DNA of 64,000 nt from Escherichia phage ECOP18, in the sequence record NC_105825.1; one strand, given 5' to 3'. This document shows positions 4,755 to 36,833 of the stretch, one piece after another (position 1 is the first letter of the stretch; every line of letters begins with the position of its first letter). Below the pieces are notes generated by a model, which was not told where the DNA came from, did not search any database, and worked only from the letters and a program-made list of their open reading frames with translations. Both the position numbers and the translations under genes were made by a program.

Positions 4755-5365
4755 AAACTTTCCCGTAAATTTAATAAGATGCCGGAATATGTTCCGTTAT
4801 TATTTAATGTAGATCCGAAAGCATCACCATTCATGAGTTTTGTTCTAAATAGTATCCCATTAAATACTGGTTTTTCAGCTCCAGTAGTAGTTACAAATAA
4901 ATCAGGATATAAATTTATAGACCATATATTGCCTGATTTGTTAAATGATGTTATTTTATATACTTTTGGGTGGTTAGACAGCTTAAATAGATCTCCAGGT
5001 TTTGGATTACCAGTTAGGAGCCCTTTTGTATCCATAGTAATATTGGAACCTTTTTGTCCCGCTGGTATATTTACTAAGTTAGTATTACCTCTAACCCTAA
5101 AAGCCTCATACTGAGGTAATATAACATCAATGTAGCCTCCTGTCCTTTTGTACTCTAGAATAAAAGCATCTAGAACACTATATTCATCTGGAAATAATTC
5201 TGGGTAGGAAATATTTATACCCCAGTATTGAGCAGATACCTTAACTTCGTTAACTTTACCATTAGGTAACTCATCACGAATTACTGGGTCATTATCAATC
5301 AGGTTAACACTTTCGAATCCTAATCCTGAAAGTTCTGGATTCGTGTATGGGTCTGGTAATCTCAT
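4751..5365 (-). CDS. distal tail protein, pb9-like (204 aa)
   Basis: ORF immediately downstream of tape measure gene; start overlaps pb3-like gene. Confidence 0.5.
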   Translation of the reverse strand: MRLPDPYTNPELSGLGFESVNLIDNDPVIRDELPNGKVNEVKVSAQYWGINISYPELFPDEYSVLDAFILEYKRTGGYIDVILPQYEAFRVRGNTNLVNIPAGQKGSNITMDTKGLLTGNPKPGDLFKLSNHPKVYKITSFNKSGNIWSINLYPDLFVTTTGAEKPVFNGILFRTKLMNGDAFGSTLNNNGTYSGILLNLRESL

Positions 5366-5474
5366 AGTTAATTTCTCCTCTTTAATAACAATATTATAAT
5401 AGTATTAGAAAATTTTATCAAGAAATTTTTATTTTTCCATAAAGAAAAGGAGGACTCAAAGTCCTCCTCCAGTT

Positions 5475-8400: not shown

Positions 8401-9155
8401 CTCATTGCTTCCTCAAAAGAAATAGCATATCCAGCAGCTTCTTGTAGTGATCTAGCAAGGGTCTGAACAGGAGTACCTGTCTGAGTACCTACTATAACAC
8501 CAAATTTTTCTAGACGATTTAGCTGATCACCTAGTTTAAGTTGTTCGAATGCAGATTGCAAAACGAAGATGTTGGAAGCAAGAGCTGCGTACATAATAGG
8601 TAAACTACCACCGATCTTAGCCATTGCCGCAAAATCACGAGTTGCACCGCGTGCGGAACCAGAAGTATTACCAATAGCTCTAGAAGCTCTGCCAGCAGCA
8701 CCAGCAGTATCATTAAAACCTCTAGCTGTGCCACCTAATGCTCTATTAGTATCATATAATCTATCCTGGACTTTTTCTGTTGCAGCTGCAACATCATTAC
8801 CCATTGTTTTAACAGATCTAGAAACTCCATCAAATCCGACTTCTAATTTATCTGCTACTTCAATCATTGTAATAGCGAGATCGTCTAACTTAGCTCCTAT
8901 ATCATTAATAGATTTAGTAACACTAAGCATACCTCTGCTAGCTTGCATTTTAGTAAGACTTTTTGCTGCTCTATCCGCTGCCCTCTCAATGGAGTAAAGG
9001 GTTTTGGGCATTTTACCTAACTGCTCATTTGTCAGTTCGGAAGCAGCAGCAGCGTTTTCCAACGCATCAGATACGTTTTCAATAGACTTTGCAGTACGAG
9101 TTGCCCCCTTCTGTTTAACGTCTATTAGTAATTCTCGTATTAGCTTATCAGTCAT
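5475..9155 (-). CDS. tail tape measure protein, pb2-like (1226 aa)
   Basis: Very long Ala/Gln/Lys-rich coiled-coil ORF with hydrophobic C-proximal segment; located between tail tube and baseplate genes. Confidence 0.8.
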   Translation of the reverse strand: MTDKLIRELLIDVKQKGATRTAKSIENVSDALENAAAASELTNEQLGKMPKTLYSIERAADRAAKSLTKMQASRGMLSVTKSINDIGAKLDDLAITMIEVADKLEVGFDGVSRSVKTMGNDVAAATEKVQDRLYDTNRALGGTARGFNDTAGAAGRASRAIGNTSGSARGATRDFAAMAKIGGSLPIMYAALASNIFVLQSAFEQLKLGDQLNRLEKFGVIVGTQTGTPVQTLARSLQEAAGYAISFEEAMRQASSASAYGFDAEQLNKFGLVARRAAAVLGVDMTDALNRVIKGVSKQEIELLDELGVTIRLNDAYADYVKQLNAANTGITYNVNSLTTFQKQQAYANAVIAESTKRFGYLDEVLRATPWEQFAANADAALRKIQQAAAKYLGPVIDAINTVFYTSQASISAEAARAQEKTNRQIDPTNVGAVALSLAASEEGYNKALDMYKESLDKRNKLKSEFDKRMEQADFYTKLAIRQVGEGIPVGLAAAGASEANKQFVAETAAMGLQVTRLGKEVEDSTENLNAWKSAYQAAGAAAAKANPEFQKQINLQRDTTDPDAVYDFNSTVLKGLTEQQKAYNQTKKTASDLANDIQNVAQNTDTAAKTSATLADAIKNIESLSLGTGKSADEYVKNLNLGYNTLSEMKTASQALSEYVKLTGNETKNQLAVQQKIADVYNQTKDKEKAQEAGRRLELQQLEEQEAALRRVLQTNQGNKAVEKEIEKIQLEKLKLTNQGMEAQKKVKDYTDKILGVDREIALLNDRTMTSTQYRLAQLKLELTIEEEKYEWYLKQADKQKEAEQSRRAQAQISRELWEAEKQATATHVSALMDALEVSQTQRNVTGQSQILTERLSILQQQLELSKGNTEEEIKYRNEIYKTSAALEQLRKQRDSQMQQQVGSSVGAVYTPTTGLSGEDKDFADMQNRMASYDQAISKLSELNSEATAVAQSMGNLTNAMIQFSQGSLDTTSMIASGMQTVASMIQYSTSQQVSAIDQAIAAEQKRDGKSEASKAKLKKLEAEKLKIQQDAAKKQIIIQTAVAVMQAATAVPYPFSIPLMVAAGLAGALALAQASSASGMSSIADSGADTTSYLTLGERQKNIDVSMSANAGELSYIRGDQGIGSANSFVPRAEGGNMYPGVSYQMGEHGTEVVTPMVPMKATPNDELKTSSNSTSGRPIILNISAMDAASFREFASSNSGALRDAVELALNENGASLKTLGNS

Positions 9156-9169
9156 GTTTTATTTTCCCA

Positions 9170-9202
9170 ATAAAAAAGGCTCTGGGCAAATCACCCAGAG
9201 CC
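9170..9202 (-). terminator. rho-independent terminator upstream of tape measure gene
   Basis: ggctctggg...cccagagcc hairpin followed by U-run on minus strand. Confidence 0.5.
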
Positions 9203-9237
9203 AAGCCTCATCGTGGAACGCCCATTGGAGGAAACTT

Positions 9238-9606
9238 TTACCGTGCGCGAGATTTAGCATGTGGCTTAACGTTAGGAATTCTCCCGTTTTGCGGTTTATG
9301 CTTCTCAGCACGTTTACGTGCAGCATCTACAGCTTTAGCATCAAATATATTGATAATGTGTAGAACAAATTCTTTTTCTATAGGATCAGTAATCCCATAA
9401 ATATCAAATAAAACACCTAATGCAGCCTTATCCTTACCTATAAAAATAGGAAAGTCACCTGGTATGAAACAGTCAATTAGACTGTTATAAATATTCATAC
9501 TAATAGCTACAATAGGTGGAAAATCTTCGAGTTCAACTGGCATAGCCTTAGGATCAGGCTCTATACCCATTGACTCGCAAAGTATTAAATATTGTTGTTT
9601 AGTCAT
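9238..9606 (-). CDS. putative tail assembly chaperone (122 aa)
   Basis: Small ORF directly upstream of tape measure gene; classic chaperone position. Confidence 0.35.
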   Translation of the reverse strand: MTKQQYLILCESMGIEPDPKAMPVELEDFPPIVAISMNIYNSLIDCFIPGDFPIFIGKDKAALGVLFDIYGITDPIEKEFVLHIINIFDAKAVDAARKRAEKHKPQNGRIPNVKPHAKSRAR

Positions 9607-9667
9607 TTTAGACGCTGAGCTTTTAATACATTTGTCTGCAAAATCAGCAACAGCATCTAGGAGTTCT

Positions 9668-10072
9668 TTACGCTTTTGGGCTACGAAAAGTGTCTAAGTG
9701 GAACACTGTCTGGTTGATCCAAGAATCAAACGCAGCAGAGTTCTGCATAAGCATTACAGCATTATCGCGACTAAAAGGAACTTCAGTTTCAGGATCAGCA
9801 TCTGTTTCAATCAGCATCAGTTTTTCAACGTCACCTACTGTCAAACCGGTCCAACCTTTAATAGCTGCGTCAACGAAGGCTTCAATGAACTTATCATCAT
9901 CCTGTACCTGAATCAAAGTACCATTAACCCATTCATCGCGTTTAGCAGAAGAAATAACACGTTTAGAGGTAGCACGAGACATATAGTTAAGTTCTAGTTT
10001 AAAGTTCGGCATACCCGGGTAGGAAAGAGTAATAGTACGAGTATCGAGAGTAATATCTTTTAAATTAATCAT
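9668..10072 (-). CDS. putative tail assembly chaperone (134 aa)
   Basis: Small ORF upstream of tape measure gene, start overlaps preceding gene. Confidence 0.35.
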   Translation of the reverse strand: MINLKDITLDTRTITLSYPGMPNFKLELNYMSRATSKRVISSAKRDEWVNGTLIQVQDDDKFIEAFVDAAIKGWTGLTVGDVEKLMLIETDADPETEVPFSRDNAVMLMQNSAAFDSWINQTVFHLDTFRSPKA

Positions 10073-10968
10073 TTTTTAATTTCTCCAAAGAAATCTATTC
10101 TCACTGGGTCTGAAGAAGCAGTAGGTATAATATCCCACTCAACTCTATACACATCTGAGAAATCTAGGCGTTTTGTAATACGTGCTAAAGGAAAATCTAT
10201 AGAAATATTATTATTTCTTATATTTAAAGGTACATCGGTCTCTGGTTCGATATTGTAAACCATATCTCCAGCAAAACGTTTTAAGTAGTATAGAGAAATG
10301 GTTGCCGAAGCATTCATTTCATTTACATAAGCTCTTTTATTATTATAAATTTTATTTATATCAAAAACACTCTTATCTTCTCTCCAAGAGCATTGCTGTT
10401 GAAAAGATAAAGAAGCGGAAATAAGGCCAGGTAAGATGCTACCGTTAGTAGAAACTATTACCGGGCTATAAGACATTGCTTCACCTTGTATAATAGAAGC
10501 TGCTTCTCTATATGTAGATACCTCGGAAAATTTCCCTGATTCAATACCAACATTAAGAATTGGTATATTCTTATCTAAAGAAAAATCTACAGTAGATACA
10601 TAGCAGTTCTCAAAATATACACAGTTATTATCTTTATTTACTATATAGATATTAAACATAATAGGTTCAATGTTGTTACTATATAGTGGTAGTAAGAAAG
10701 TATTACCTTTTCTATCAAAACCTAGCCATTCGAAAAAATTAGCTTCAGTAAGTGTATTACTAAAATTTATTGCTAATGATATAGAAGAAGGAGTTTGAGC
10801 ATTTATAATAGAGTCTGCATAGTTAGTTCTACGATGAACAGTCCTACGAAGAGTCTTGAATTCCTCGTAGGAAGTCTGTATATCATAGTTTGATAGGGCA
10901 TCAAAATGAAATGCCCTACCATCATACTCAACTATAACTTTTGACTCTCGCATTAGAGAGTAGTACAT
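10069..10968 (-). CDS. hypothetical tail protein (299 aa)
   Basis: ORF track; inside structural module. Confidence 0.4.
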   Translation of the reverse strand: MYYSLMRESKVIVEYDGRAFHFDALSNYDIQTSYEEFKTLRRTVHRRTNYADSIINAQTPSSISLAINFSNTLTEANFFEWLGFDRKGNTFLLPLYSNNIEPIMFNIYIVNKDNNCVYFENCYVSTVDFSLDKNIPILNVGIESGKFSEVSTYREAASIIQGEAMSYSPVIVSTNGSILPGLISASLSFQQQCSWREDKSVFDINKIYNNKRAYVNEMNASATISLYYLKRFAGDMVYNIEPETDVPLNIRNNNISIDFPLARITKRLDFSDVYRVEWDIIPTASSDPVRIDFFGEIKK

Positions 10969-24138: not shown

Positions 24139-24664
24139 CTTAAGTATACAGGGCATACAAGAAGCATTTGCTTATGATCCCGAAACCGGAGTTATTACCT
24201 GGAAAAGTGGTAGTCGTAAAGGAAAAGAAGCTGGCACTTTAAATAGAGGATATAGACAGCTTAAGTACAAAGGGTTTAGAGCTTATGCACATCAAATAGC
24301 TTTTGTTATTATGGAGAATAGATGGCCCGAGGAATGCGTTGACCATATTGACAGGAATAAACTAAATAATAGATGGTCAAATCTGCGAGAAGCTACAATT
24401 ACGGAAAATAATCATAATGGTAGAACTTCAAAAACATCCTCGGGCTATCTAAATGTTACGTGGCATAAGGGACTCCATAAATGGATGGTAAGATTACACG
24501 ACAAACATGGACTTATAAAGGGTACTACTGAGTATTTTTCCTACGATAGATTGGAAGATGCAGTAAATTATGCGAATTTACTAAGAAAGAAATTTCATGG
24601 CAGCTTTGCAGTACAAGAGGCATTCAAAGGGAACATACCAGATGTTGTTCAGTTAAACAGTTAA
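24125..24664 (+). CDS. HNH homing endonuclease (179 aa)
   Basis: HQIAF...CVDHIDRNKLNNRWSNLREAT...ENN motif block. Confidence 0.65.
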   Translation: MMKNNLSIQGIQEAFAYDPETGVITWKSGSRKGKEAGTLNRGYRQLKYKGFRAYAHQIAFVIMENRWPEECVDHIDRNKLNNRWSNLREATITENNHNGRTSKTSSGYLNVTWHKGLHKWMVRLHDKHGLIKGTTEYFSYDRLEDAVNYANLLRKKFHGSFAVQEAFKGNIPDVVQLNS

Positions 24665-24785
24665 TTAGCACTAAAATGACTTTTGCCAAATTCTTTGGAT
24701 TACGTACGCGTGGGTGGGTCCACTGCCTCCGGCGAAAATACTTAGTCTGCTAACCGCCACCCCCGTTACTATTACCATGCTAACT

Positions 24786-24822
24786 GTTTCACCCTGCAAC
24801 CATTTTAATTGCAGGGTGAAAC
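24786..24822. terminator. bidirectional hairpin between convergent genes
   Basis: Perfect inverted repeat gtttcaccctgcaa...ttgcagggtgaaac. Confidence 0.5.
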
Positions 24823-24839
24823 AATTTCAACTTTAATTA

Positions 24840-25574
24840 TTACGCAACTTTTAATTTCTCCATGTATTGTTGCGGGCTGCAACTATATTCTGCGCGTTCT
24901 TCCTCGGTCATACCTTCCCAACATAATTTCAAACGATCAGCTAGGAATTGATAATCATTATCATCGTCGAGGGATTCATCAATAAAGGTTTCACCTATCA
25001 ATGTAACCCCAATCGATAGAATATCGTTAACGGCTTGTGCGTCCAGCGTTTTAAATCCATATGACGCTGCCGCTGATAGCACGCCTTTATGATCATCAAT
25101 CATTGTAAAATCAGCGTTCGGATATAACTGTTTAAATAACTCAAAATAATAAGATTTATACACGGCGTCCTTGCTGTGGTATATTTCGCTAACCTTATCA
25201 GCTTTAAAATATTTATGCAGTGTGTCGCGGGAAAACACGCGGATATTGCTTTTATCACGACCACGCAAGCCTTGTTTGCGCAGGAAGTAATAATCTGATT
25301 TGCTCATTAGTCGAGCGGTGCAAATAATGTTTAAAGTATTTGCGTCATTCATGCACTGGCGCATGTATTCAACTAATGGTAATAATGTATCTTGCATTAT
25401 TAAATGATGTTTGCAGGCTTCATTTTTATACTTATTTAAATCTAAATTGCCCTCACTATCAAAGCAAGGCGCTACACGGTGGAAAGAATTAACAATAGTG
25501 CCGTCTAAATCCCAAATCATGACGCGGGAAATATGCGGGAAGCTGCGGGAAATATTCATAATAGCTTTATTCAT
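24840..25574 (-). CDS. dmp: 5'-deoxyribonucleotidase Dmp-like, HAD hydrolase (244 aa)
   Basis: HAD motif I (IWDLDGTI); size matches T5 Dmp (from memory). Confidence 0.65.
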   Translation of the reverse strand: MNKAIMNISRSFPHISRVMIWDLDGTIVNSFHRVAPCFDSEGNLDLNKYKNEACKHHLIMQDTLLPLVEYMRQCMNDANTLNIICTARLMSKSDYYFLRKQGLRGRDKSNIRVFSRDTLHKYFKADKVSEIYHSKDAVYKSYYFELFKQLYPNADFTMIDDHKGVLSAAASYGFKTLDAQAVNDILSIGVTLIGETFIDESLDDDNDYQFLADRLKLCWEGMTEEERAEYSCSPQQYMEKLKVA

Positions 25575-25661
25575 TTTGTTACGTTCTCCATTTAAGGGAT
25601 TAGATTAATTCAATCTTGCCAGCTAATTATATTAGATTAGCTGGCAATGTTCAATTAACTA

Positions 25662-28459: not shown

Positions 28460-28657
28460 TTAATTTAAAGGCACTAGGCTAGAACTAACACCACAAGCAA
28501 CGGCAGCGATAAAACAAAGCAAGCCCAAACGTTTTGCTAATTTAGATTTACGTTTAAAATAATATGAATCTAAATCATTTTGAAAATAAGCGAACAATAA
28601 CGAGGCCGCCATAATAAACAAGCCTAGAATTAATGATTCAGTAGGATAAAAGATCAT
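28460..28657 (-). CDS. small membrane protein (65 aa)
   Basis: Two hydrophobic helices. Confidence 0.35.
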   Translation of the reverse strand: MIFYPTESLILGLFIMAASLLFAYFQNDLDSYYFKRKSKLAKRLGLLCFIAAVACGVSSSLVPLN

Positions 28658-28749
28658 TTTAAAAACTCCTGATTTAAGGGAAGAAAATAACTATCGCTAA
28701 ACAGTTATATTATTGCCCCCTCACTAAAAAAGGGGGCAAGGTATAACTA

Positions 28750-29157
28750 TTATTCGCCTGCGGCTTGTTTTACTTCCTCGGCAACGCCTAACAATTGCGC
28801 TACTGCGTCCAGCGTTTCAAGTTTTGCACTTTCAAGGCTTGCCAGATCATCGGCATCTTTGATAATGCCGGAATCGATAGCGTGTTTTGCAATAACGCGT
28901 ACATAATGAGCTTTGCGGATTGAACTACCGCCGCCAACTTTGCGAGGCTTATCGCTTTTTTGATATGCTTTTGCGCTGGTCAATTTTGACCGAACGGATA
29001 CGGGAGAAGCCGCGCCTACTGCTTTTGCAATCTCTTTCAGGCCGTCGCTATTTGCGAAATCTAAACCGTTTTCATTAATTAACTGTTGATACATGGAAAC
29101 AGCTTTCTGAGTGTTTTCTTCATTCCATGCGAATTTTGCGGTTTTAGCGTTAGTCAT
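28750..29157 (-). CDS. A2: A2-like pre-early DNA-binding protein (135 aa)
   Basis: Position upstream of A1-like gene; basic central segment. Confidence 0.45.
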   Translation of the reverse strand: MTNAKTAKFAWNEENTQKAVSMYQQLINENGLDFANSDGLKEIAKAVGAASPVSVRSKLTSAKAYQKSDKPRKVGGGSSIRKAHYVRVIAKHAIDSGIIKDADDLASLESAKLETLDAVAQLLGVAEEVKQAAGE

Positions 29158-29253
29158 GATGTAACTCCTATTAGTTTAATTTAAGGGATTAGATTAACTT
29201 AATGTTAATCGTTATATCCCCCTGAAATAAGGGGATATAAAGTTAACACTAAT

Positions 29254-29505
29254 TTACAATACAGCTTCCCATTTTTCGTTGCGTTGAACAACCTTTACAA
29301 CATCGCCGGATTTAACGCGAACGCTAAAAACGGGCTTGCCGTTGTTACTACGTTCATTTTCAGCGTATACCGCGTCGATTGTATCGAACGGCATAAGCGC
29401 CGCACCTTTAATACGTTCGGCCTTTCCGGTTAATTCATCCGTTTTAGTAACGAAAGGAATGAAGACGGATTGACCAACTTTCGGCGCGGTAATAACGTTT
29501 TGCAT
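29254..29505 (-). CDS. hypothetical protein (83 aa)
   Basis: ORF track. Confidence 0.4.
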   Translation of the reverse strand: MQNVITAPKVGQSVFIPFVTKTDELTGKAERIKGAALMPFDTIDAVYAENERSNNGKPVFSVRVKSGDVVKVVQRNEKWEAVL

Positions 29506-29735
29506 AATATAAACTCCTAGTTATTTGGGGATTGTTCCGCATTACCTGCTAGAAAGTAACAGCAGGTAATAAGTAACAATCCGCTCGCCAATATAATCAA
29601 TTTTAAAGAACTCCACGTAGGCCGCTATATCCCGTTAGGGGGCGGGATGCATTATGGTAAGCACCGACCGTCAAATTTTATCAAGTTATCGCTCTTATCG
29701 AACTGGGTACATCTTAAAACCTATCGGCTAGGTTG

Positions 29736-29939
29736 TCAAACAATTTTTTGCAATTTTTTATGATTTTCTTTTAGGTCAATCATAATATTTCGCCAGATCA
29801 TTTCCAGACCTTGCTGGCGACCTTTCTTGTACTGCGTGAATCTATATCTTACTGATCTTTGAGCTACTGTCAACAAATTTTTTGTTTTGCTATCTAGTGC
29901 CTTAATAGGCTTGCCAGTGATCAAAAGCGTTTGTTTCAT
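29736..29939 (-). CDS. hypothetical protein (67 aa)
   Basis: ORF track. Confidence 0.35.
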   Translation of the reverse strand: MKQTLLITGKPIKALDSKTKNLLTVAQRSVRYRFTQYKKGRQQGLEMIWRNIMIDLKENHKKLQKIV

Positions 29940-30386
29940 ATCGTCGATTCCTTATAATGAATAAGTTTACCGCCGATAGGCTTTAAGATGTACCCAATTT
30001 TTAAAGAGCGTGGCGGTAAACTTCCCGCCGTGTAGTTCGTCATTGCCGCCCTACGAGATAAATAATAGGGGATTCCCGAAAATGGCGCAACCTTATTTTT
30101 GTAAAGAAATGTAAAGGTAAAACTCACCGGACACCGTGCGGCGACGGCCTAAAATTAAAAGAAACGGGCGCGCGAATACCACAAAATAAAGCAAATAGGC
30201 AAGTAATTTTTTCATTTATATTTGCTTTGCCCTACTTGACAAAATCTAAAAAGCTCGTGGTAACGATAAACGGCTTATCCCCTTATGATGGGATGGCTAA
30301 AAACTTTATTGCGTTCTGGAGCGTTTTAGGCGCATTCTAGCCTTGTTGATAACTTATCCCCAAAAGCAAAAATGAAATTTTCCTAG

Positions 30387-30395
30387 TTATCCACT
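30387..30395 (+). promoter_or_regulatory. DnaA box-like (ttatccact)
   Basis: 8/9 match to TTATCCACA; inverted partner agtggataa at 30411-30419. Confidence 0.45.
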
Positions 30396-30497
30396 TGACT
30401 TTTATTTTCCAGTGGATAACTACTTATTTTATGAAATAAATTAATTGACTTTTATTTGTTAGTATGCATCGGAAAGATAGCAGACTAATAATTGCTA

Positions 30498-30512
30498 GAA
30501 TGATAATCATGC
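30498..30512. promoter_or_regulatory. Fur-box-like site (gaatgataatcatgc)
   Basis: Contains AATGATAATCAT, the core of the Fur consensus GATAATGATAATCATTATC. Confidence 0.35.
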
Positions 30513-30518
30513 TGGTGG
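30511..30518 (+). other. Chi octamer GCTGGTGG
   Basis: Exact match; second copy at 33872-33879, same strand. Confidence 0.4.
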
Positions 30519-30683
30519 ATTGTAACGACCTGAATTATTAGCAGACTATTAATCACGGAAAAATCTCATTAGCCAACTAACTATTTCATGATATATAATA
30601 TACATATAAATTAATGAGAAATAATAACTATAAGAAATCATCTAGCTAAGTGAGAACCACTATCATTTAAGTTATACACAAAG

Positions 30684-30692
30684 TTATCCACA
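30684..30692 (+). promoter_or_regulatory. DnaA box (ttatccaca)
   Basis: Perfect consensus 9-mer. Confidence 0.55.
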
Positions 30693-30763
30693 GCACTTTT
30701 TGACTTGACACGATAGGCGGCGATATAAGGACTTTTACACAGACTTATCTACAGGTTATTCCA

Positions 30764-30779
30764 CTGTATAAATATACAG
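30764..30779. promoter_or_regulatory. LexA (SOS) box-like palindrome ctgtataaatatacag
   Basis: CTGT-N8-ACAG with AT-rich spacer. Confidence 0.45.
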
Positions 30780-31046
30780 GGTAAAAAGGTAGTGTTAACA
30801 ACTGCAATCAATTTTAAGCGGCTTAAATCGCATTCTAACGAGCTAAACGCTGCGGGGTAATATTAAAGTAAAGCCTTAATGCGTCGCCCTGGTGGCTTCG
30901 CCGTGGTTTGCTCTTTATTGCACCGCTGCGCGGTTAGCATAAAAATAGGCGCTAGGCAAGGAAAATAAAAAGGTAAAATAATATTTGCCTATGCTAGAAA
31001 TTTACCTTTATCATTCACTCACCGATTAACGAGGGAGGCCGAACAA

Positions 31047-32057
31047 ATGAGGCTTTATAAACCTGATAATGCCACCGTTTTAAAAGGTGCATTGCGCAAC
31101 CTGCTGGATGGTAGCAAGTCAACCAGCATTAAACATTTTATTAACAAGATTGAAACTATTCATCAAAACTTTTTTGATGATTATGACGCTTATGATATGG
31201 ATAGTTTTCTACCCTTATATAGACAAGGGGCAACGCTAGTTTTATATAATCGGGATTGCCATATCTTTACAGGCAGGGGAGCGGGGCCGGATACCGATTT
31301 TATTGTTGCGCAGGGTAATAATATTGTTGCGTATCATAGCAATTCAGGCCGTCAATCATTTAATATAAATAGTTTTGAGCTTATTGGACTTGATCTGATA
31401 AATGGACTTTCTAGCATTGAGGGATTTTTAGATGTTATCTGGAAGTATTTACCCGCTGGATGGCATAAGCCGGATAACGACGGATCTCAATATACCGGTA
31501 TAATGGCTTTTGATGGCGACGGTAATTTTTTGTTACCACGGGAGCTATACCCATATATTTATGATGGGGATATAGAAAGCGCTGGTTTTTCTTTCTGGAA
31601 AGATGAAGATCAGATTATTGACAGCGTAGAAAACCATGCTGTAAATTCTAACACTCAAAGCGTTAACACTCAAACTACTGAAAACAAAGGAAAAAACACT
31701 AGGACCAAGATTGCTAACATCGTTGCCGCTAATAAATCCGCCGTTGTAAATGCTGCAAAACTGGAAGCGGGTAAAATTGCACTGACTCAAATCACGAAAG
31801 TAGCGGCTAAAAAAGCACCGTTCATGATTAAAGGCTATATTGATACGCCGATTGGTCGAGTAGTGATTGCTAACCTGCTAAGTGTAGCGGTTGACCAGTA
31901 CGCACCGACTAACCAGAAAGCGAAAGCGGTAGCAGGGGCGGCTATGGAAGCGGCAATGGTGGAAATGGTGCAAAGTTTTAACATCGCTGAAATGATTGAT
32001 GAAATGGTGAAAGGTATTGATATTTCTACTTTTACCACTAGCACCGAAATCGAGTAA
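31047..32057 (+). CDS. hypothetical protein (336 aa)
   Basis: RBS gagggagg upstream; N-terminal globular part, NT-rich linker, amphipathic Ala/Val/Lys-rich C-terminus. Confidence 0.6.
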   Translation: MRLYKPDNATVLKGALRNLLDGSKSTSIKHFINKIETIHQNFFDDYDAYDMDSFLPLYRQGATLVLYNRDCHIFTGRGAGPDTDFIVAQGNNIVAYHSNSGRQSFNINSFELIGLDLINGLSSIEGFLDVIWKYLPAGWHKPDNDGSQYTGIMAFDGDGNFLLPRELYPYIYDGDIESAGFSFWKDEDQIIDSVENHAVNSNTQSVNTQTTENKGKNTRTKIANIVAANKSAVVNAAKLEAGKIALTQITKVAAKKAPFMIKGYIDTPIGRVVIANLLSVAVDQYAPTNQKAKAVAGAAMEAAMVEMVQSFNIAEMIDEMVKGIDISTFTTSTEIE

Positions 32058-32066
32058 TAATATTTA

Positions 32067-32096
32067 GTGGGGATTATTTCCCCACTTTACTATTCC
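32067..32096 (+). terminator. hairpin plus T-rich tail
   Basis: agtggggattatttccccact followed by ttactatt. Confidence 0.45.
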
Positions 32097-32122
32097 CTTG
32101 TTAATTAATAGGAGGCTAACTA

Positions 32123-32617
32123 ATGGCTGAGGAAAAATACGGCTTCTCGCTAGGAGAAGTGAGCACGGCTAAACATGATATGATCATTTTAGTCGATTGT
32201 CATACTGGCTATTGCGGAGAAGGGAACACCGAAGAATACTTTGTTCCTGCTGGTACGGATCTGGACGCTTTCGCTCATGAAATGGCTATTGATAATGCTT
32301 CTCGTTTTGGTAGCGATGGCTATGAAGACGAAGAAACTGGCGAATGGTATGAAAATGAAAACGTATATGCAAGCCTTTATCATTATCAGCTAAGTAAATC
32401 CGGCACATATGTAAACGGCGGCGATCCTATTAATTCCGTCATGAAATTAATTATTAAATATGGTGGCGTCGAGATAATTGATAACAAAGCGGTAATATAC
32501 GCAAACCGATTAAAACAGCTTGTTTATATTCCTGATAGTACCCGATGGGATGAATACGCTGTTTTGCATGACGAATTGAAACGATGTTTCAATATTGAAT
32601 CCCTGCAAGTAGTCTAA
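32123..32617 (+). CDS. hypothetical acidic protein (164 aa)
   Basis: RBS aggaggc; Asp/Glu/Tyr-rich, no motif. Confidence 0.6.
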   Translation: MAEEKYGFSLGEVSTAKHDMIILVDCHTGYCGEGNTEEYFVPAGTDLDAFAHEMAIDNASRFGSDGYEDEETGEWYENENVYASLYHYQLSKSGTYVNGGDPINSVMKLIIKYGGVEIIDNKAVIYANRLKQLVYIPDSTRWDEYAVLHDELKRCFNIESLQVV

Positions 32618-32722
32618 TGTAAAGTTTTGTAAAGGTCGCCTTTTATGGTGGCCTTTTTTGTTATAATGCTTTTACACCAAAACGGTGGATTGAAAATTTT
32701 CCCAAAAATTTGGAGGCTTAAA

Positions 32723-32953
32723 ATGGTTGCTTATTCTTCTGCTAGTCATCTGTTTACCGCGCAAGGCTGGGTATCTAATCGTGCTGTCATCTATGAAATG
32801 GTGCAGGAGTTCGGCATTGCTAAAACTTATAATACCATTCAGGAACTATATAACGCCGATAAAATCGATCAGCAAACGGCTGGCTTTTTACTGGATACCC
32901 TGAAAGCTGAACATTGCACTAAAAAACAAGCCGCTAAAATTGTTTTAATGTAA
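32723..32953 (+). CDS. hypothetical protein (~76 aa; start moved to ATG with RBS)
   Basis: ggaggcttaaaATG at 32723; ORF track start 32645 lacks RBS. Confidence 0.45.
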   Translation: MVAYSSASHLFTAQGWVSNRAVIYEMVQEFGIAKTYNTIQELYNADKIDQQTAGFLLDTLKAEHCTKKQAAKIVLM

Positions 32954-33002
32954 TTAATAACGGGGCGTTACTTTCGCCCCGATAACTAGGAGGCTATCAC
33001 AA

Positions 33003-33150
33003 ATGGTTATTTTTCGATCTATTTTAGCGGGTATCTTGGGCGCTATTTTATCGTTATTTGCGATAGCTTTCGGCGTTCACGCTGTTATTATTGGCGCTGG
33101 CATTGCTGCGTTTTCTTATCTGCTGGGCTGCATGACTAGTAAAGGAGAAT
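33003..33150 (+). CDS. small membrane peptide (49 aa)
   Basis: Not in ORF track; strong RBS taggaggct; two hydrophobic helices. Confidence 0.45.
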
Positions 33151-33154
33151 AAAA

Positions 33155-33367
33155 ATGATCCGCAACGTTTCCCTTGCACGTTCGAAAGGCTTTAAGCTGG
33201 TGGATGTTAACACGTTCGAGCGGGAAGATTGTAAAATCGAATATGTAGCACGTAACAAAAATGCCTTTCGTGTTACCGAGAAAAAATTTGATAAGCGCGG
33301 CAACGTGATAGCTGAAACAGTTAAACATTTTGCCACCTTTTACGCTGCTTTTCGTGGGGTATTATGA
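33155..33367 (+). CDS. hypothetical protein (70 aa)
   Basis: RBS aaggaga; basic. Confidence 0.45.
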   Translation: MIRNVSLARSKGFKLVDVNTFEREDCKIEYVARNKNAFRVTEKKFDKRGNVIAETVKHFATFYAAFRGVL

Positions 33368-33486
33368 TTCAGCAAATTAAAACGGCTTTTCGTTTTTGGG
33401 GCGTCCTGCCTTCAATTGGTTTTATTCTGATAATTATTAGTCAGCTAATGATCATCGGCGGAACTATTTGGGAGCTATGCAAATGA
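33364..33486 (+). CDS. small membrane peptide (40 aa)
   Basis: Not in ORF track; start overlaps previous stop; single TM helix. Confidence 0.35.
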   Translation: MIQQIKTAFRFWGVLPSIGFILIIISQLMIIGGTIWELCK

Positions 33487-33827
33487 TAATTTATGAAGGC
33501 AATCGCTTTGTTGCTAATTACCGTCCGGCATTATTAGCAAACTATTTAAACCAGCTTTCCCCAGCTTATAAGGGCGTTATTAATATTTATGAGGGAAAGG
33601 CGCATTATAAAATTAATGCGGTCGTTGCCCGTGAACTAGCATTTCAATTTTTGACCTTTGCATCTTGTGACGTTCAGGTTATGGGTGAGGCATTAATCGC
33701 GGAAAATGAAGAGGATTTTATTAATATTTTCCGTAAGGTATGCACTGAGCGCTTGATAATGAAAGGCGCGTATATTCAATCAACTGCGGAAAGTATTGAA
33801 ACAGCATTTCGAAAGGTGGCGCAATGA
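33483..33827 (+). CDS. hypothetical protein (~114 aa)
   Basis: ATGA overlap with previous gene; ORF track frame 33468-33827. Confidence 0.45.
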   Translation: MIIYEGNRFVANYRPALLANYLNQLSPAYKGVINIYEGKAHYKINAVVARELAFQFLTFASCDVQVMGEALIAENEEDFINIFRKVCTERLIMKGAYIQSTAESIETAFRKVAQ

Positions 33828-33927
33828 GATTATATATTTTCGTTGGTAATGTTAAGGCAGCTAATGATTCCGCTGGTGGCGACAACGTTCGCCACCATTG
33901 GCAAAAATATATTTACTAGGAGTTATT

Positions 33928-34035
33928 ATGTCTGGTTTAATGTTTACCTTATTAGTAGTTTATAGCATAATTACGGCAGGAATAGTAACTTATGTTACTA
34001 GTAAAATTTGGCCGGGAATATATGGTAATTTTTAA
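33928..34035 (+). CDS. small membrane peptide (35 aa)
   Basis: Not in ORF track; RBS taggag; single TM helix. Confidence 0.35.
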   Translation: MSGLMFTLLVVYSIITAGIVTYVTSKIWPGIYGNF

Positions 34036-34050
34036 TAACGGAGCGTTATT

Positions 34051-34254
34051 ATGAGCAATAAAATTATTGTAACCAAAATCAGTACAATGGTTGATGTTTT
34101 TTACGTGCCAGATACGCCGGAGAATCGGCAAGCGGTCGAGCGGGGCGAATATGATAAAGTGATTTATGATCACGATGGTTATTATCAGTATTTGGTGGAT
34201 TCCTACGGGGAGGAGGAGAAGATCACGCATCGACTACCGGAGGAGGGTTTATGA
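34051..34254 (+). CDS. hypothetical acidic protein (67 aa)
   Basis: ORF track; RBS acggag. Confidence 0.45.
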   Translation: MSNKIIVTKISTMVDVFYVPDTPENRQAVERGEYDKVIYDHDGYYQYLVDSYGEEEKITHRLPEEGL

Positions 34255-34406
34255 AACGATGGTTTAATCACTGGTACAAGCGGTTTTTAGTACGCCGTCG
34301 CAAGTCTAGGCATCAAGATGAGTGGCGGGAGTGGGCAAAGCGTAACGGTTGCCCGCTACTATAATAATCACGGGGCGCAACTATCGGGAAGTGCCCCCAA
34401 TTCTCA

Positions 34407-34427
34407 AATGAGAATGATTCTCATTTG
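34407..34427. repeat. Fur-box-like palindrome, copy 1
   Basis: aaatgagaatgattctcattt. Confidence 0.5.
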
Positions 34428-34620
34428 ACCGCGCCCGCGATGGTTAGCCTGCTAATGATTAGGGTGTTACGTGTCGCCTTGTGTGATCGTTAGCGAGCTA
34501 ACTAATTTTCAAGCCTCCTCCAATTTTGCCCTTGTTTTAGTATCTCCACCAAAATTAAACGCGTTAGAATGCGATCTAGGACGTTTTAACGCTATATTAG
34601 AATTATTCACTGCGTAGGAA

Positions 34621-34640
34621 TACTGTATATTTATACAGTA
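34621..34640. promoter_or_regulatory. LexA (SOS) box-like palindrome tactgtatatttatacagta
   Basis: CTGT-N8-ACAG, close to consensus TACTGTATATATATACAGTA. Confidence 0.5.
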
Positions 34641-34648
34641 GGATAAGC

Positions 34649-34657
34649 TGTGGATAA
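34649..34657 (-). promoter_or_regulatory. DnaA box (tgtggataa)
   Basis: Perfect reverse complement of TTATCCACA. Confidence 0.55.
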
Positions 34658-34721
34658 GTCTGTTAATAACACCCCAAAATGGCTAGGATTCTGTCAAGTC
34701 AAATCGTGCTGTTAATAAGTC

Positions 34722-34730
34722 TGTGGATAA
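34722..34730 (-). promoter_or_regulatory. DnaA box (tgtggataa)
   Basis: Perfect reverse complement of TTATCCACA. Confidence 0.55.
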
Positions 34731-34796
34731 CTTAAATAATAGTGTTTCTCACTTCCGTTCTTAAATACGAATCACTATCATTTGCGTTCCACTTTC

Positions 34797-34815
34797 TAAA
34801 TGAGAATCATTCTGC
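34797..34815. repeat. Fur-box-like palindrome, copy 2
   Basis: taaatgagaatcattctgc. Confidence 0.45.
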
Positions 34816-34901
34816 TTTTTAAAGGAGAATCGTTTCACTTCCTGAATAATTCTCACTTCCATTCTTAAATGCGAATTATTATCATTCTCATTCCGCTTTT
34901 T

Positions 34902-34930
34902 AAATGAGAATCATTCTCATTATCATTCGC
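34902..34930. repeat. Fur-box-like palindrome, copy 3 (perfect 19-bp palindrome AATGAGAATCATTCTCATT)
   Basis: aaatgagaatcattctcattatcattcgc. Confidence 0.5.
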
Positions 34931-34964
34931 ATTCAGGCGAGCAGGGCAATTGCCCTGCGCTTTT

Positions 34965-35632
34965 GTGCAAATCCGACATTGCTCCACGGGTGTTACGTGC
35001 GGGCGTGTATGTGCGAATCCGACAATTTTTGGTAGTGTGCAAATCCGACCCGAAAAATTTTTATAGTGTGCAAATCCGACAATGAATTTTCCTAAAAACT
35101 CCAGCAATCACGAACTGCGTTCGAATCCTGTGGGGTATGTGCAAATCCGACACGGTTTTTCTAGGATTAAGATGTGCGAATCCGACAAGATTTTTGTGAC
35201 TTCGATTGGAGGGTGTGTGATTGTGTGAGTTTGGGGAGAAGTTGAGAGAGCGAGAAAAATTTGAGGGAACTGCGGGAGGGGCGCATGTTTGGTGCGGAGC
35301 ACCTGATTTGCGGGGATTTTGGGGAAGAGTTGAGAAGATTTGGGTTAATTTGAGATTAGTGCAGAAAAAGTAAAATTTTATTAGCTAAATGGAGCAAAAT
35401 AGCTTGACAAGTGAAAATTCTTGTGGCTCTAAAAACTCAGGCAATCATGGGCCTTCGGCCCGAAATAATGCTGCCATTTTCAGGAGATTATGTGTCCATG
35501 AAAACTCAGGCAATCATGGGCCTTCGGCCCGAAATAATGCTGCCATTTTCAGGAGATTATGTGTCCATGAAAACTTAGGCAATTGTGCAAATCCGACCAG
35601 TTTTTAAACTTATGTCAGTGTGCAAATCCGAC
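34965..35632 (+). repeat. dispersed direct-repeat family GTGC(A/G)AATCCGAC(A/C), eight copies
   Basis: Copies at 34965, 35011, 35037, 35068, 35139, 35174, 35585, 35619; each followed by a T/A-rich tract; spacing irregular. Confidence 0.7.
35432..35569 (+). repeat. perfect tandem duplication, 2 x 69 bp, each unit with GGGCC-TTCG-GCCC hairpin
   Basis: Unit aaaactcaggcaatcatgggccttcggcccgaaataatgctgccattttcaggagattatgtgtccatg repeated head to tail. Confidence 0.8.
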
Positions 35633-35677
35633 AGTAATTTCTGGAAATGTGTTTTGGAAAAATGCCCTCTAGAAATA

Positions 35678-35749
35678 ACCGCCCTCCCAATAACCGCCCT
35701 GTATTAAACCGCCTAGTATATGTTCCTAGAAACTTAGGAGAACCGCCCT
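35678..35749 (+). repeat. short direct repeats aaccgccct (3-4 copies)
   Basis: Copies at 35678, 35692 and 35741, plus a degenerate copy at 35707. Confidence 0.5.
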
Positions 35750-36077
35750 AGAAAGAGGGAGTATTTCGTGAGAACTCTGGAGTTTCTAGGAAAGTGTTGT
35801 GCCATCCTAGCAGAAGAGCGGCAACCGGTGTATCATCTTGAACACAAATATTGCCTTTAAATATTTTTAGTTATTTAAAAGTAAATATACCCCCATTTCA
35901 TGTGAGATTCCTCGTGGGGCGCGTGAGTATTACGGAAGAACTCTAATATTGGCCCGCGCTAAGACTAGCCGCTATAGCACAGACGCAAATAGAGTTGTAA
36001 TAATCATCGCCCCTAGAGTTCACAATAAGAGTTATTGTTAATCTATGAGATTATTATAACATACATTTTTAATAACG

Positions 36078-36833
36078 TCAAGAAGATTTTACTAATGTTT
36101 TTGGATTCTTCTTGGCTTTGAGATATATCCCTTTAGATGCTAGATAGATATATGTTGCTAGAAATGAAGATTCTGATCCCGATTCCTCATAGGTTAACGT
36201 ACCTCTAGGGTATTTATTTGTTTTAGGAGCATAGTTAAGCACAGCCGCAGTTAATGACCCTAATCCTAGAACATCTGCAAGACGTCTAAAGGTATTCTCT
36301 TCATCATGGATAGCATAAAGAATGTTATCTTCAATATCCGTTAATGGAATTTTACGGGTATGAGATACTGCAATCCGTGCTATCATAGCTCCAATTGTTT
36401 TATTAATATCCTCGAAAGAAACACTCTCCATATATTTTAGAGGGGGAAGATGGTCATATTTACATTTCTTAGGTGGAATAAGAAGTTGTTCAGGATAAGC
36501 CTCTAGTGCCTGACGAACGTTTGCTTCTGGATATGTTGGTAAAGGTTCATCTATAATAACATGTAAGAAATTAGCTCTGTGCCCCTTAGCAGTTGGATCT
36601 AAAGACTTCAATATTTTGTTCATATCCACGTATGAATACGCTAGATCTGCTTGAGGAGCATTAATATCAAACTTAATCTTCTTACCTTCCCATTTAGCAG
36701 GGAACATCTCACAAACAAACATTACTGCATGTTTAACATCTGGCTCTAGCTCTGATAGACATTTGTGATCTGCTGTTACTGCTAAAGCGAGTATATTCTT
36801 AAATTTATTAGCTTCTTCAATCATATATCCCAT
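36078..36833 (-). CDS. hypothetical early protein (251 aa)
   Basis: ORF track; no motif recognised. Confidence 0.45.
   Translation of the reverse strand: MGYMIEEANKFKNILALAVTADHKCLSELEPDVKHAVMFVCEMFPAKWEGKKIKFDINAPQADLAYSYVDMNKILKSLDPTAKGHRANFLHVIIDEPLPTYPEANVRQALEAYPEQLLIPPKKCKYDHLPPLKYMESVSFEDINKTIGAMIARIAVSHTRKIPLTDIEDNILYAIHDEENTFRRLADVLGLGSLTAAVLNYAPKTNKYPRGTLTYEESGSESSFLATYIYLASKGIYLKAKKNPKTLVKSS

Follow-up and report, generated by a model that had tools for sequence, protein, structure and literature searches.

Why does the DNA that a T5-like phage injects first carry, within a single non-coding stretch, sequences that resemble recognition sites of host proteins? The question arises from a window of 64,000 nucleotides of Escherichia phage ECOP18 (sequence record NC_105825.1). 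A preliminary description of this window had placed DnaA boxes, a LexA-type palindrome, a Fur-like site and a Chi octamer in about 1 kb of intergenic DNA between divergent gene blocks, and had suggested that the phage either recruits or titrates host regulators on first-entering DNA.

Position of the region in the terminal repeat

The source phage is T5-like (Tequintavirus), and positions 29940-31046 are the central untranslated region of a T5-type terminal repeat, located on first-step-transfer (FST) DNA. The setting described earlier, intergenic between divergent gene blocks on first-entering DNA, was correct. The region is 100% identical to LTR positions 4919-6025 of Escherichia phage MM-1, from which the ECOP18 window differs outside the terminal repeat. 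It lies between the leftward pre-early genes dmp-A1-A2 and a rightward ORF block, as Repeat Regions 1 and 2 do in T5, and the gene order around it is the same as in T5, whose record annotates both the FST DNA and the injection stop signal (iss). The HNH gene that splits Repeat Regions 1 and 2 in T5 is absent from ECOP18, so that the two regions are fused here. The region contains pre-early promoters and one copy, the left, of an inverted repeat of 132 nt; the right copy is 3.8 kb away.

29940..31046, no strand: central untranslated region of the terminal repeat, equal to T5 Repeat Regions 1+2 in Davison's naming
30648..30779, + strand: left inverted-repeat copy (IRC-spacer-IRD), 77% complementary to 34623-34754
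34623..34754, - strand: right inverted-repeat copy (IRD'-spacer-IRC'), injection-stop-signal candidate; the T5 iss is annotated at the homologous place
30813..30847, no strand: further inverted-repeat arm with the motif GCGATTTAAGCC.../TTAGAATGCG, partner at 34555-34589

The left copy matches the 131-bp IRC-spacer-IRD of Davison, with its partner a few kb to the right. In T5, Repeat Regions 1-3 and iss occupy the same place and contain the 131/132-nt inverted repeat (Heusterspreute 1987; Wang 2005; Davison 2015; bioRxiv 10.1101/866236), and T5 and ECOP18 are alike in having eight DnaA or DnaA-variant boxes, with pairs 3 nt apart and a box-to-box spacing of 61 nt. The ECOP18 terminal repeat is another member of the T5 type. 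The two repeat copies flank a variable block of accessory pre-early genes, and to the right of the right copy follow the repeat families D1-D8 (compare the DRE/DRD repeats of T5). According to the literature, the main FST stop lies to the right of the right copy; Davison cites Rhoades for a second, minor FST stop near the left copy, a band near 5.8 kb. A motif related to that of the further arm was seen in Klebsiella, Erwinia, Aeromonas and Vibrio relatives. Rfam returned no known RNA family in 28500-36500, a span that includes the central untranslated region.

Across 15 aligned Tequintavirus and Epseptimavirus sequences the mean conservation of 29940-31046 is 85%, and because close relatives are conserved throughout the region, conservation among them cannot single out motifs. 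Motif counts were compared with those in 2000 dinucleotide shuffles of 29940-31046. Whole-genome counts refer to an approximate genome composed of the window and 44 kb of the MM-1 record; its joins are inexact and the counts are approximate only.

DnaA arrays and SOS-type boxes at the repeat arms

All motifs listed in the preliminary description were found in the sequence, the coordinates of the Fur-like one being slightly loose. What it overlooked is that the LexA-type box and the DnaA-box pairs form one arm of the 132-nt inverted repeat, and that three further DnaA-type boxes (30672-80, 30733-41 and 30745-53) are present, which form two pairs with 3-nt gaps.

30387..30419, no strand: inverted pair of near-consensus DnaA boxes, TTATCCACT / AGTGGATAA, with TTGACT in between
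30672..30692, + strand: DnaA box pair TTATACACA-aag-TTATCCACA, with a 3-nt gap as Davison describes
30733..30764, + strand: DnaA box run TTTTACACA-gac-TTATCTACA-gg-TTATTCCAC
30762..30781, no strand: left LexA/SOS-type box CACTGTATAAATATACAGGG, 16/20 to the consensus, approximate heterology index 4.25
30985..31014, + strand: promoter-like site TTGCCT-18-TATCAT, at the position of an experimentally characterised T5 promoter upstream of gene 011
34621..34640, no strand: right LexA/SOS-type box TACTGTATATTTATACAGTA, 19/20 to the consensus, approximate heterology index 0.57
34649-57 and 34722-30, with variants at 34638-46, 34661-69 and 34710-18: right-arm DnaA boxes, within 34623-34754

The perfect DnaA box TTATCCACA is located at 30684-30692 and the inverted DnaA-like pair at 30387-30395 and, as the inverse, 30411-30419. 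The claim that such boxes are unusually dense held against the shuffled controls: TTWTNCACA was observed three times against 0.11 expected (P<5e-4), TTATCCACA with at most one mismatch seven times against 0.26, and DnaA-box pairs with a 3-nt gap twice against 0.001. In the approximate whole genome, all three copies of strict TTATCCACA lie within the two repeat arms. Each repeat copy has two pairs of DnaA or DnaA-variant boxes with 3 bp between the partners, as is typical of T5, and the two copies are mirror-image modules in which two DnaA-box pairs 61 nt apart are followed by a weak third DnaA-like box and by an LexA/SOS box overlapping this third one. In the left module the boxes of the run at 30733-30764 are arranged head to tail with a period of 11-12 nt and weaken toward the LexA box, which the last of them overlaps. 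The inverted pair at 30387/30411 is conserved below the average of the region; two phages have other sequence in its place, and Epseptimavirus has lost the right copy. The Aeromonas and Vibrio relatives again have TTATCCACA boxes in inverted pairs. The DnaA boxes match the eight-box set already published and are therefore already known, and recruitment of host DnaA by entering T5 DNA is likewise a published hypothesis (Davison, bioRxiv 10.1101/866236).

The same arrays could be read as parts of an origin-like element, in which DnaA and AT-rich DNA would promote unwinding for replication or recombination-dependent synthesis and LexA would serve as an SOS-sensitive lock. The phased boxes adjoin a very AT-rich stretch of ~90 nt (30560-30650, seen by eye), and Davison noted the likeness to oriC (bioRxiv 10.1101/866236). 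However, the T5 origins are located near the genome centre and the replication genes enter only in the second step (Davison, bioRxiv 10.1101/866236), and the modules occur in inverted duplicate, unlike known origins. We thus regard an origin as very improbable.

The LexA-type palindrome CTGT-N8-ACAG, CTGTATAAATATACAG, is present at 30764-30779 and is also above the shuffled expectation (one observed against 0.004 expected, P=0.0045). A mean of 0.10 20-mers per shuffle (200 shuffles of the window) agreed with the SOS consensus TACTGTATATATATACAGTA in at least 16 positions, and 19 agreeing positions never occurred. Each of the two LexA-type boxes lies at the inner edge of its repeat copy and abuts the DnaA array, and the right one belongs to the injection-stop-signal repeat. 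By an approximate heterology index, trained on 30 E. coli operator sequences, both boxes rank with the best E. coli SOS operators, showing the low heterology together with CTGT-N8-ACAG that is characteristic of an LexA operator, and the right box surpasses all 30 operators compared. In 39 distinct T5-like loci the right box matches the consensus at 19/20 positions in 33 and at 17-18/20 in the remainder. The left box is found across the same set of loci and is decayed in about six of the 39 phages; it is therefore dispensable in some of them.

Beyond the close relatives, CTGTAT-N4-ATACAG stands beside TTATCCACA boxes in the relatives from Klebsiella, Erwinia, Proteus, Aeromonas and Vibrio, in which A1 is only 33-73% identical. 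LexA-type boxes persist across six host genera despite flanking non-coding DNA that can no longer be aligned. Variation or flipping is confined to the central 4 nt and leaves the half-sites unchanged, as would be expected for a dimer with LexA geometry. An exact-pattern scan of viral contigs for an LexA-type box together with a DnaA box gave 82 stretches, mostly T5-length genomes or contigs with distant A1/A2 homologues. Phages with A1 homologues were also examined from alpha-proteobacteria (Rhizobium), as hosts with a different LexA motif; in these phages A1 lies inside replication modules, and the T5-like repeat and layout were not found. Judged by its sequence, one palindrome of the stop-signal region is an SOS operator.

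Alternatively, the palindrome could be the site of a phage protein, for example of an A1/A2 complex that would cut there and so free the arrested DNA, in line with the restriction-like model of Davison, and its SOS-box likeness would then be coincidence or mimicry. We consider this improbable. Such a site gives no reason for a 19/20 match to the host LexA consensus, flanking TA included, nor for a palindrome that stays fixed while A1 and A2 diverge to ~33% identity. Moreover, the fold predicted for A2 resembles GcrA/Myb rather than the LexA winged helix, and domains of the GcrA type recognise sites of another kind; A2 itself matched nothing in the Pfam copy searched or among PDB sequences, its relatives being tagged PF26822.1 in the protein database. 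No cleavage is known.

If host LexA is the ligand, it might act as an ordinary repressor that, through its boxes, keeps promoters shut and lets a portion of the first-entering DNA be transcribed only under host SOS. Its targets could be the accessory gene block or transcription running outward over the DnaA arrays. The boxes contain TATAAA/TATATT and flank the rightward pre-early operon, and in the window the -10 hexamer of a leftward promoter-like sequence, TTAACA-16-TATATT (10/12), falls within the left box. However, the -35 of this sequence is absent in T5 and, judged by eye, in the Klebsiella and Erwinia relatives, and the promoter-like neighbours of the right box are weak. The promoter of gene 011, annotated at 6411-6489 directly before the gene in the T5 record, lies ~200 bp downstream of the left box, and the operon terminator lies upstream of the right box. 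Promoter scans of the window and T5, with other relatives inspected by eye, found no consistently conserved promoter overlapping the LexA-type boxes, which leaves LexA without an obvious regulatory target. Repression of this kind is unlikely in our view, if the least so of the alternatives considered here.

Chi octamers and the Fur-like sequence

30496..30514, no strand: Fur-like sequence TAGAATGATAATCATGCTG, 14/19 to the Fur consensus GATAATGATAATCATTATC
30511..30518, + strand: Chi octamer GCTGGTGG in non-coding DNA; the octamer and the 9 nt after it do not vary among the 15 aligned relatives
33196..33203, + strand: Chi octamer inside a T5.014-like gene, missed in the preliminary description
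33872..33879, + strand: third Chi octamer of the repeat, GCTGGTGG

The two Chi octamers reported earlier, the first and the third of the repeat, are both present and on the same strand. The one between them has an orthologous site in T5, AKFV33, chee24, DT571/2, Sw2 and others. Chi is over-represented in 29940-31046 (one observed against 0.008 expected, P=0.008) and in the window (four against 0.93), where three copies lie in the terminal repeat, all on the + strand. The sites of the repeat are carried by the accessory gene block and the adjacent spacer, and an excess in or near terminally repeated DNA is also known from P1. Across eight genera, 18 sites lie on the + strand and one on the - strand, with 0.35 expected, and in Sugarlandvirus, where the gene block is inverted, Chi is still on the + strand. 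Chi is not a transcription-factor site; that nearly all copies share one strand suggests that RecBCD acts on the terminal repeat, and does not suggest regulation. The orientation would suit RecBCD arriving from the right end, in the right repeat copy, and not from the first-entering left end; termini have been mapped in a minority of the relatives. T5-like pre-early functions are reported to inactivate RecBCD, which weakens any late role of Chi.

The Fur-core match AATGATAATCAT, given earlier as 30498-30512, is present at 30499-30510. Its reading as a Fur site was not sustained: a match of at least 14/19 was observed once against 0.09 expected, which is not significant (P=0.077), the conservation of the site is only average, and position 30499 is kept in ~30% of relatives. 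We therefore rejected a Fur box at 30496-30514 as a chance-level match conserved no better than its surroundings. As a separate observation, Fur-like sequences are in excess elsewhere in the terminal repeat.

Could the remaining motifs, too, be by-products of an AT-rich, repeat-rich and conserved region with nothing functional beyond the known repeats, and the Chi bias a consequence of G-rich coding strands? The Fur-like match is indeed at chance level, the overall conservation in close relatives is high, and Chi outside the terminal repeat lies on the coding strand in the approximate genome. The shuffle tests speak against this explanation, however, as do the survival of motifs where the flanks no longer align, the 18-to-1 strand bias and the retention of Chi on the + strand despite gene inversion. 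We give it hardly any credence.

Possible role at the injection stop and known systems

The earlier suggestion that host regulators are recruited is thus well supported at the level of sequence for DnaA and for LexA, is not supported for Fur, and does not apply to Chi. Titration is unlikely, because two LexA and eight DnaA boxes per entering genome would hardly deplete abundant host proteins. We consider it moderately probable that DnaA and LexA dock on the entering DNA at both repeat modules, with the Chi sites facing RecBCD from the right end. Host DnaA would oligomerise on the phased boxes during DNA entry, and an LexA dimer would bind the high-affinity box with which each array ends on its inner side, resulting in two host-protein complexes, one per module. 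The right complex would contribute to whatever structure arrests the DNA at the first-step stop, and the left one, in the 29940-31046 region, could be its partner or a secondary hold site. The role of LexA would most likely be architectural, as a cap or stabiliser of the DnaA array, and not that of a classical promoter repressor. The Chi sites would be readable solely by leftward RecBCD entering from the right end of the repeat, either at the right terminus of the genome (the right-hand repeat copy) or at any break to the right of the stop signal; there, Chi would halt degradation and favour recombination within the terminal redundancy, as proposed for P1. The DnaA-hold model itself is still a hypothesis, and papers of 2023 and 2026 call the stop mechanism untested or poorly understood.

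Going further, we speculate that LexA together with DnaA could be a working part of the T5 injection brake, its state tuning how firm or how long the hold is, while one-way Chi would channel RecBCD/RecA to terminal-repeat recombination. Healthy cells would contain intact LexA, and it would be depleted once A1 has broken down the host DNA or the SOS response is induced. We give this extension little chance of being correct. At least one T5-like phage record names DH5a as host. DH5a is recA1 and unable to cleave LexA, and if the recorded host is recA1, LexA cleavage cannot be required for infection.

The stop of T5 DNA after 8% entry and its restart are an old open problem, for which DnaA is the only host factor proposed so far. 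A LexA brake, if real, would be the second host factor for a pause unexplained for ~50 years. A near-consensus SOS box at each DnaA array and one-way Chi, in the Demerecviridae members examined, add two well-understood host systems, and since mutants exist for both (lexA(Def), lexA(Ind-), recA, and recBCD or recC alleles affecting Chi recognition), the question is directly testable with standard strains and phage point mutants. Should LexA binding prove irrelevant, the catalogue would still be corrected, an anonymous palindrome becoming an SOS operator by sequence. New to the known picture would be that the palindrome bordering IRD/IRD' on the inside is an SOS box by sequence, and that the Chi sites cluster on one strand. 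LexA, SOS, Fur and Chi do not occur in the Davison preprint, which treats repeats, palindromes and DnaA boxes (bioRxiv 10.1101/866236), and are likewise absent from the 2023-2026 T5 papers examined. Literature searches that combined T5, Tequintavirus or Demerecviridae with LexA, SOS box or Chi found no relevant paper; an earlier mention in Heusterspreute 1987, Wang 2005 or Davison 2015 is conceivable.

In comparison to E. coli SOS operators, the phage boxes share CTGT-N8-ACAG and the AT-rich centre, the right box being one position off the consensus. Unlike these operators, they are two inverted copies separated by 3.8 kb, each joined to a DnaA array, and have no consistently conserved overlapping promoter. 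In coliphage 186 (tum), CTXphi and colicin operons, LexA boxes couple mobile elements to host DNA damage. The GIL01 gp7-LexA report likewise describes a mobile element with a high-affinity LexA box that couples it to the DNA-damage state of the host. These elements are temperate phages or plasmids in which LexA represses a defined promoter, whereas the T5-like carrier is strictly virulent and its boxes lie on DNA that pauses in transit, with no evident target promoter. With oriC-type arrays the phage modules have in common that strong consensus 9-mers nucleate runs of weaker boxes in the same orientation, spaced by about one helical turn beside AT-rich DNA; in contrast to oriC, the phage boxes have 2-3 nt gaps within pairs and are duplicated in mirror image. 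Chi clusters near terminal repeats have been described for P1 (Subramaniam and Smith; bioRxiv 10.1101/2021.07.08.451572), and in both P1 and T5-like phages Chi is over-represented in or beside terminally redundant DNA, where it would be met by RecBCD entering the genome end. P1 has ~50 Chi sites in both orientations and needs RecA/RecBCD for growth, whereas T5-like phages have 1-4 per repeat in essentially one orientation, are reported to inactivate RecBCD early and include at least one with DH5a as listed host; the last two points argue indirectly against a dependence of T5-like growth on RecA/RecBCD. T5-like terminal repeats would be a further case, next to P1, of a phage in which Chi appears to be under selection.

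Setting of the region and its DnaA boxes

Hundreds of T5-like phages match the repeat at 75-99% in a sequence search, and coordinates in the long terminal repeat (LTR) of Escherichia phage MM-1 are converted to window coordinates by adding 25021. The region 29940-31046 is flanked on the left by A1, A2, gene 007 and hdi (gene 008), all on the minus strand, and on the right by the gene 011 block on the plus strand, a gene order that agrees with its placement in the LTR. The DNA to the left of the repeat (24400-25600), in which an HNH endonuclease adjoins dmp, does not match MM-1; its matches are other T5-like phages, at only about 91%. Since the repeat is near-identical to that of MM-1 whereas the DNA outside it is different, the window represents a related genome in whose assembly the repeat copies were collapsed into one. 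According to the T5 annotation, the repeat is the first-step-transfer DNA, the first to enter the host, with the injection stop signal (iss) at 9140-10149. The region corresponds to Davison's Repeat Regions 1 and 2, a large untranslated stretch that is separated by an HNH gene in T5 and fused in most relatives (bioRxiv 10.1101/866236). In the window, both are fused.

The DnaA, LexA-type, Fur-like and Chi motifs listed in the preliminary description were all recovered in place, and additional DnaA boxes were found at 30672, 30733 and 30745. Chance expectations were obtained from 2000 shuffles of the 1.1-kb region that keep its dinucleotide content. Three consensus DnaA boxes (TTWTNCACA) were observed versus 0.11 expected, seven copies of TTATCCACA with at most one mismatch versus 0.26, and two pairs of DnaA boxes at a 3-nt gap versus 0.001. 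A site density beyond shuffled controls was likewise found for CTGT-N8-ACAG (one versus 0.004, P = 0.0045) and Chi (one versus 0.008, P = 0.008), but not for the Fur-like match of 14/19 (one versus 0.09, P = 0.077, not significant).

Together, the DnaA pairs and the LexA-type box make up the left arm (30648-30779) of a 132-nt inverted repeat with its partner arm at 34623-34754. In a comparison of 25 T5-like phages, Davison assigned a 131-bp IRC-spacer-IRD element to Repeat Region 2 and the inverted counterpart, IRD'-spacer-IRC', to Repeat Region 3, immediately left of the first-step shear point (bioRxiv 10.1101/866236). Both arms together hold eight DnaA or DnaA-variant boxes, always paired at 3 bp; Davison also recalls a minor first-step band close to the left copy and hypothesizes that membrane-bound DnaA retains the DNA at these boxes (bioRxiv 10.1101/866236). 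This layout is exactly reproduced in the window, with the same box-to-box distance of 61 nt as in T5.

DnaA box pairs of the two arms
30672/30684 and 30733/30745: left copy
34649/34661 and 34710/34722: right copy

In an approximate whole genome, composed of the window and the missing 44 kb of MM-1 with unverified joins, strict TTATCCACA occurs three times, each time in one of the two arms. Earlier work had already described this region with its repeats and DnaA boxes; the window adds one further member.

Other repeats and promoter-like sites near the region
29690-29728 and 29972-30010: 39-nt inverted repeat (85%) bracketing hdi (gene 008) and strong leftward pre-early promoter-like sites
29873-29846 and 29739-29711, minus strand: these promoter-like sites, within the bracket
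34964-35636: TGTGCAAATCCGACA, eight copies across 670 nt, right of the stop-signal arm
35422-35559: tandem duplication of 69 nt with the hairpin GGGCCTTCGGCCC, likewise right of this arm

The TGTGCAAATCCGACA copies may be the counterpart of Davison's DRD repeats. In Vibrio phage BBMuffin, TGCAAATYCGA-type repeats likewise follow the right module.

Fur-consensus-like sequences with at least 14/19 matches number 16, in excess of the 4.2 found in shuffles, and 11 of them lie in the repeat or just left of it (24944-24968, 34397-34926 and others in 24.9-35 kb). The consensus is best matched by GGAATTGATAATCATTATCATCGTC, which lies about 60 bp to the left of where the repeat begins, and by AAATGAGAATCATTCTCATTT, a palindrome present in five copies to the right of the stop-signal arm. 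Comparable palindromes centred on GAATC/GATTC occur in Klebsiella, Erwinia, Aeromonas, Proteus and Vibrio relatives.

LexA-type palindromes and their conservation

The palindrome occurs twice, at 30764-30779 and at 34623-34638, and T5 carries both boxes as well. Written as 20-mers, the left box CACTGTATAAATATACAGGG matches the consensus TACTGTATATATATACAGTA at 16/20 positions and the right box TACTGTATATTTATACAGTA at 19/20. When the whole window was shuffled 200 times, 20-mers with at least 16 matches numbered 0.10 on average, and none had 19. On an approximate heterology index trained on 30 E. coli SOS operators, the right box, at 0.57, is better than all of the training operators (1.0-10.4), and the left box scores 4.25, the next best 20-mer in 64 kb reaching 9.1.

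The right box matches at 19/20 in 33 of 39 distinct T5-like loci and at 17-18/20 in the remaining six, and CTG...CAG is always retained. The left box usually matches at 17/20 and is decayed in about six phages, in parallel with Davison's remark that the left copy is less essential (bioRxiv 10.1101/866236). Because the whole region is 85% conserved in close relatives, motif conservation among them tells little. More telling are distant relatives found via the A1 protein, at 73% down to 33% identity, which comprise Klebsiella Sugarlandvirus, Erwinia KEY, Proteus, Aeromonas and two Vibrio phages. Alignment of their non-coding DNA with the window is lost; nearly every one has, in the equivalent untranslated stretch, at least two CTGTAT-N4-ATACAG palindromes, each adjoining TTATCCACA boxes. 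Viral contigs were scanned for the exact pattern box-gap-TGTGGATAA, which gave 82 stretches, most of them in T5-length genomes or in metagenomic contigs with A1/A2 homologues of 27-38% identity; a few are unrelated, the DnaA-like 9-mer being merely a gene start. One metagenomic lineage whose A1/A2 homologues are distant has a LexA-type box, inverted DnaA boxes and a plus-strand Chi within about 60 nt (loci L069 3390-3445, L127 2216-2271 and L133 8592-8647).

The half-sites are fixed, while the central four bases are variable (AAAT, ATTT, ATCC, GGAT) or flipped between close relatives. In the 39 loci, the centre (30770-30773 and 34629-34632) is AAAT or ATTT, flipping independently per copy between close relatives, and the perfect-consensus centre ATAT was not seen. 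Judged from sequence, this is the pattern that would be expected of a symmetric dimer with LexA spacing. A phage-encoded protein that co-varies with its site could in principle bind the palindrome. However, the palindrome holds the host consensus across six host genera with one common LexA motif and is more simply read as a putative LexA site.

LexA, SOS, Fur and Chi are not mentioned in Davison's text (bioRxiv 10.1101/866236), nor is LexA in the T5 papers of 2023-2026 that were covered, and searches of the T5 literature for these motifs gave nothing relevant; on this coverage, priority is not certain. The inner palindrome of both copies as a putative near-consensus SOS operator, conserved across Demerecviridae, appears to be new, and so does the one-strand Chi cluster.

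Module anatomy and a proposed role of LexA

In every genus the order is DnaA pair, spacer, DnaA pair, weak DnaA-like box and LexA box, the last forming the inner end of the DnaA array. The weak box overlaps the edge of the LexA box (TTATTCCAC left, GTAGGATAA right). Variable accessory genes are bracketed by the two modules.

Features next to the LexA-type boxes
30813-30847 and 34555-34589: second conserved inverted-repeat pair, TTTAAGCGGCTTAAATCGCATTCTAACGAGC and its inverse, about 35 nt inside the LexA boxes
30798-30771, minus strand: leftward promoter-like site TTAACA-16-TATATT (10/12)

A GCTTAGAATGGCTTACAGG-type motif, related to TTTAAGCGGCTTAAATCGCATTCTAACGAGC, recurs in Klebsiella, Erwinia, Aeromonas and Vibrio relatives, often in multiple copies.

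Classical repression by LexA would agree with the leftward promoter-like site of the window, whose -10 hexamer falls inside the left box. However, T5 lacks its -35 element, and so, by eye, do the Klebsiella and Erwinia relatives. Gene 011 is preceded by a characterised promoter at about 200 bp downstream from the left box; the terminator of the operon is located upstream of the right one. These features lead us to favour an architectural role, in which LexA at the inner end would cap or stabilise the DnaA oligomer. For at least one relative, DH5a is given as host in the record. This strain is recA1 and unable to cleave LexA, and LexA cleavage would thus be dispensable for infection.

The suggestion that entering DNA recruits host regulators is supported at the sequence level for DnaA and LexA, which may act there as proposed, and unsupported for Fur; titration of these regulators, also suggested, is unlikely. 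The old injection-stop problem becomes testable with existing lexA, recA, dnaA and recBCD strains.

In Sugarlandvirus, the block between the repeats is inverted compared with Tequintavirus (locus L011 6714-8928 versus window 31047-33400). Its gene 011 homologue (36% identical, E = 2e-44) is found on the opposite strand and at the opposite block end, adjoining the right module. The inversion points to past recombination between the two inverted repeats.

Chi sites of the terminal repeat

Four Chi octamers are present in the window versus 0.93 expected, and three of them are in the repeat.

Chi sites of the repeat
30511, plus strand: non-coding site
33196-33203, plus strand: absent from the preliminary description; inside the T5.014-like gene, with an orthologous site in T5 and most relatives
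33872, plus strand

In every relative, the stretch from A2 to the right module contains one to four Chi sites on the plus strand and next to none on the minus strand. The sites are partly non-orthologous. Eight genus-level representatives together hold 18 on the plus and one on the minus strand (composition expectation 0.35; sign test, 7.6e-5). In Sugarlandvirus, Chi stays on the plus strand, antisense to the inverted genes; thus, G-richness of the coding strand does not account for the bias. Non-coding Chi sites of several genera have a longer common context, GCTGGTGGAT(A/T)..(T)AAC (window 30511-30527; relatives' loci L014 8230, L015 9102, L017 13331 and L018 13563), and the conserved Chi unit may be longer than the octamer.

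Chi is recognised solely when RecBCD approaches from the 3' side, so that plus-strand sites would act on an enzyme that moves leftward after loading at the repeat's right end. For virion DNA, this entry would correspond to the right terminus of the genome, which is 1.5-5 kb away from the Chi sites of the right-hand repeat copy. The Chi sites would give the first-entering left end no protection. Chi, listed in the preliminary description next to the regulator sites, belongs to a process different from regulation. T5 pre-early functions are reported to inactivate RecBCD, which together with the recA1 host DH5a disfavours a large role of Chi. The nearest parallel is P1, in which Chi sites are clustered close to the terminal repeats and have been proposed to promote RecBCD-dependent circularisation (bioRxiv 10.1101/2021.07.08.451572).
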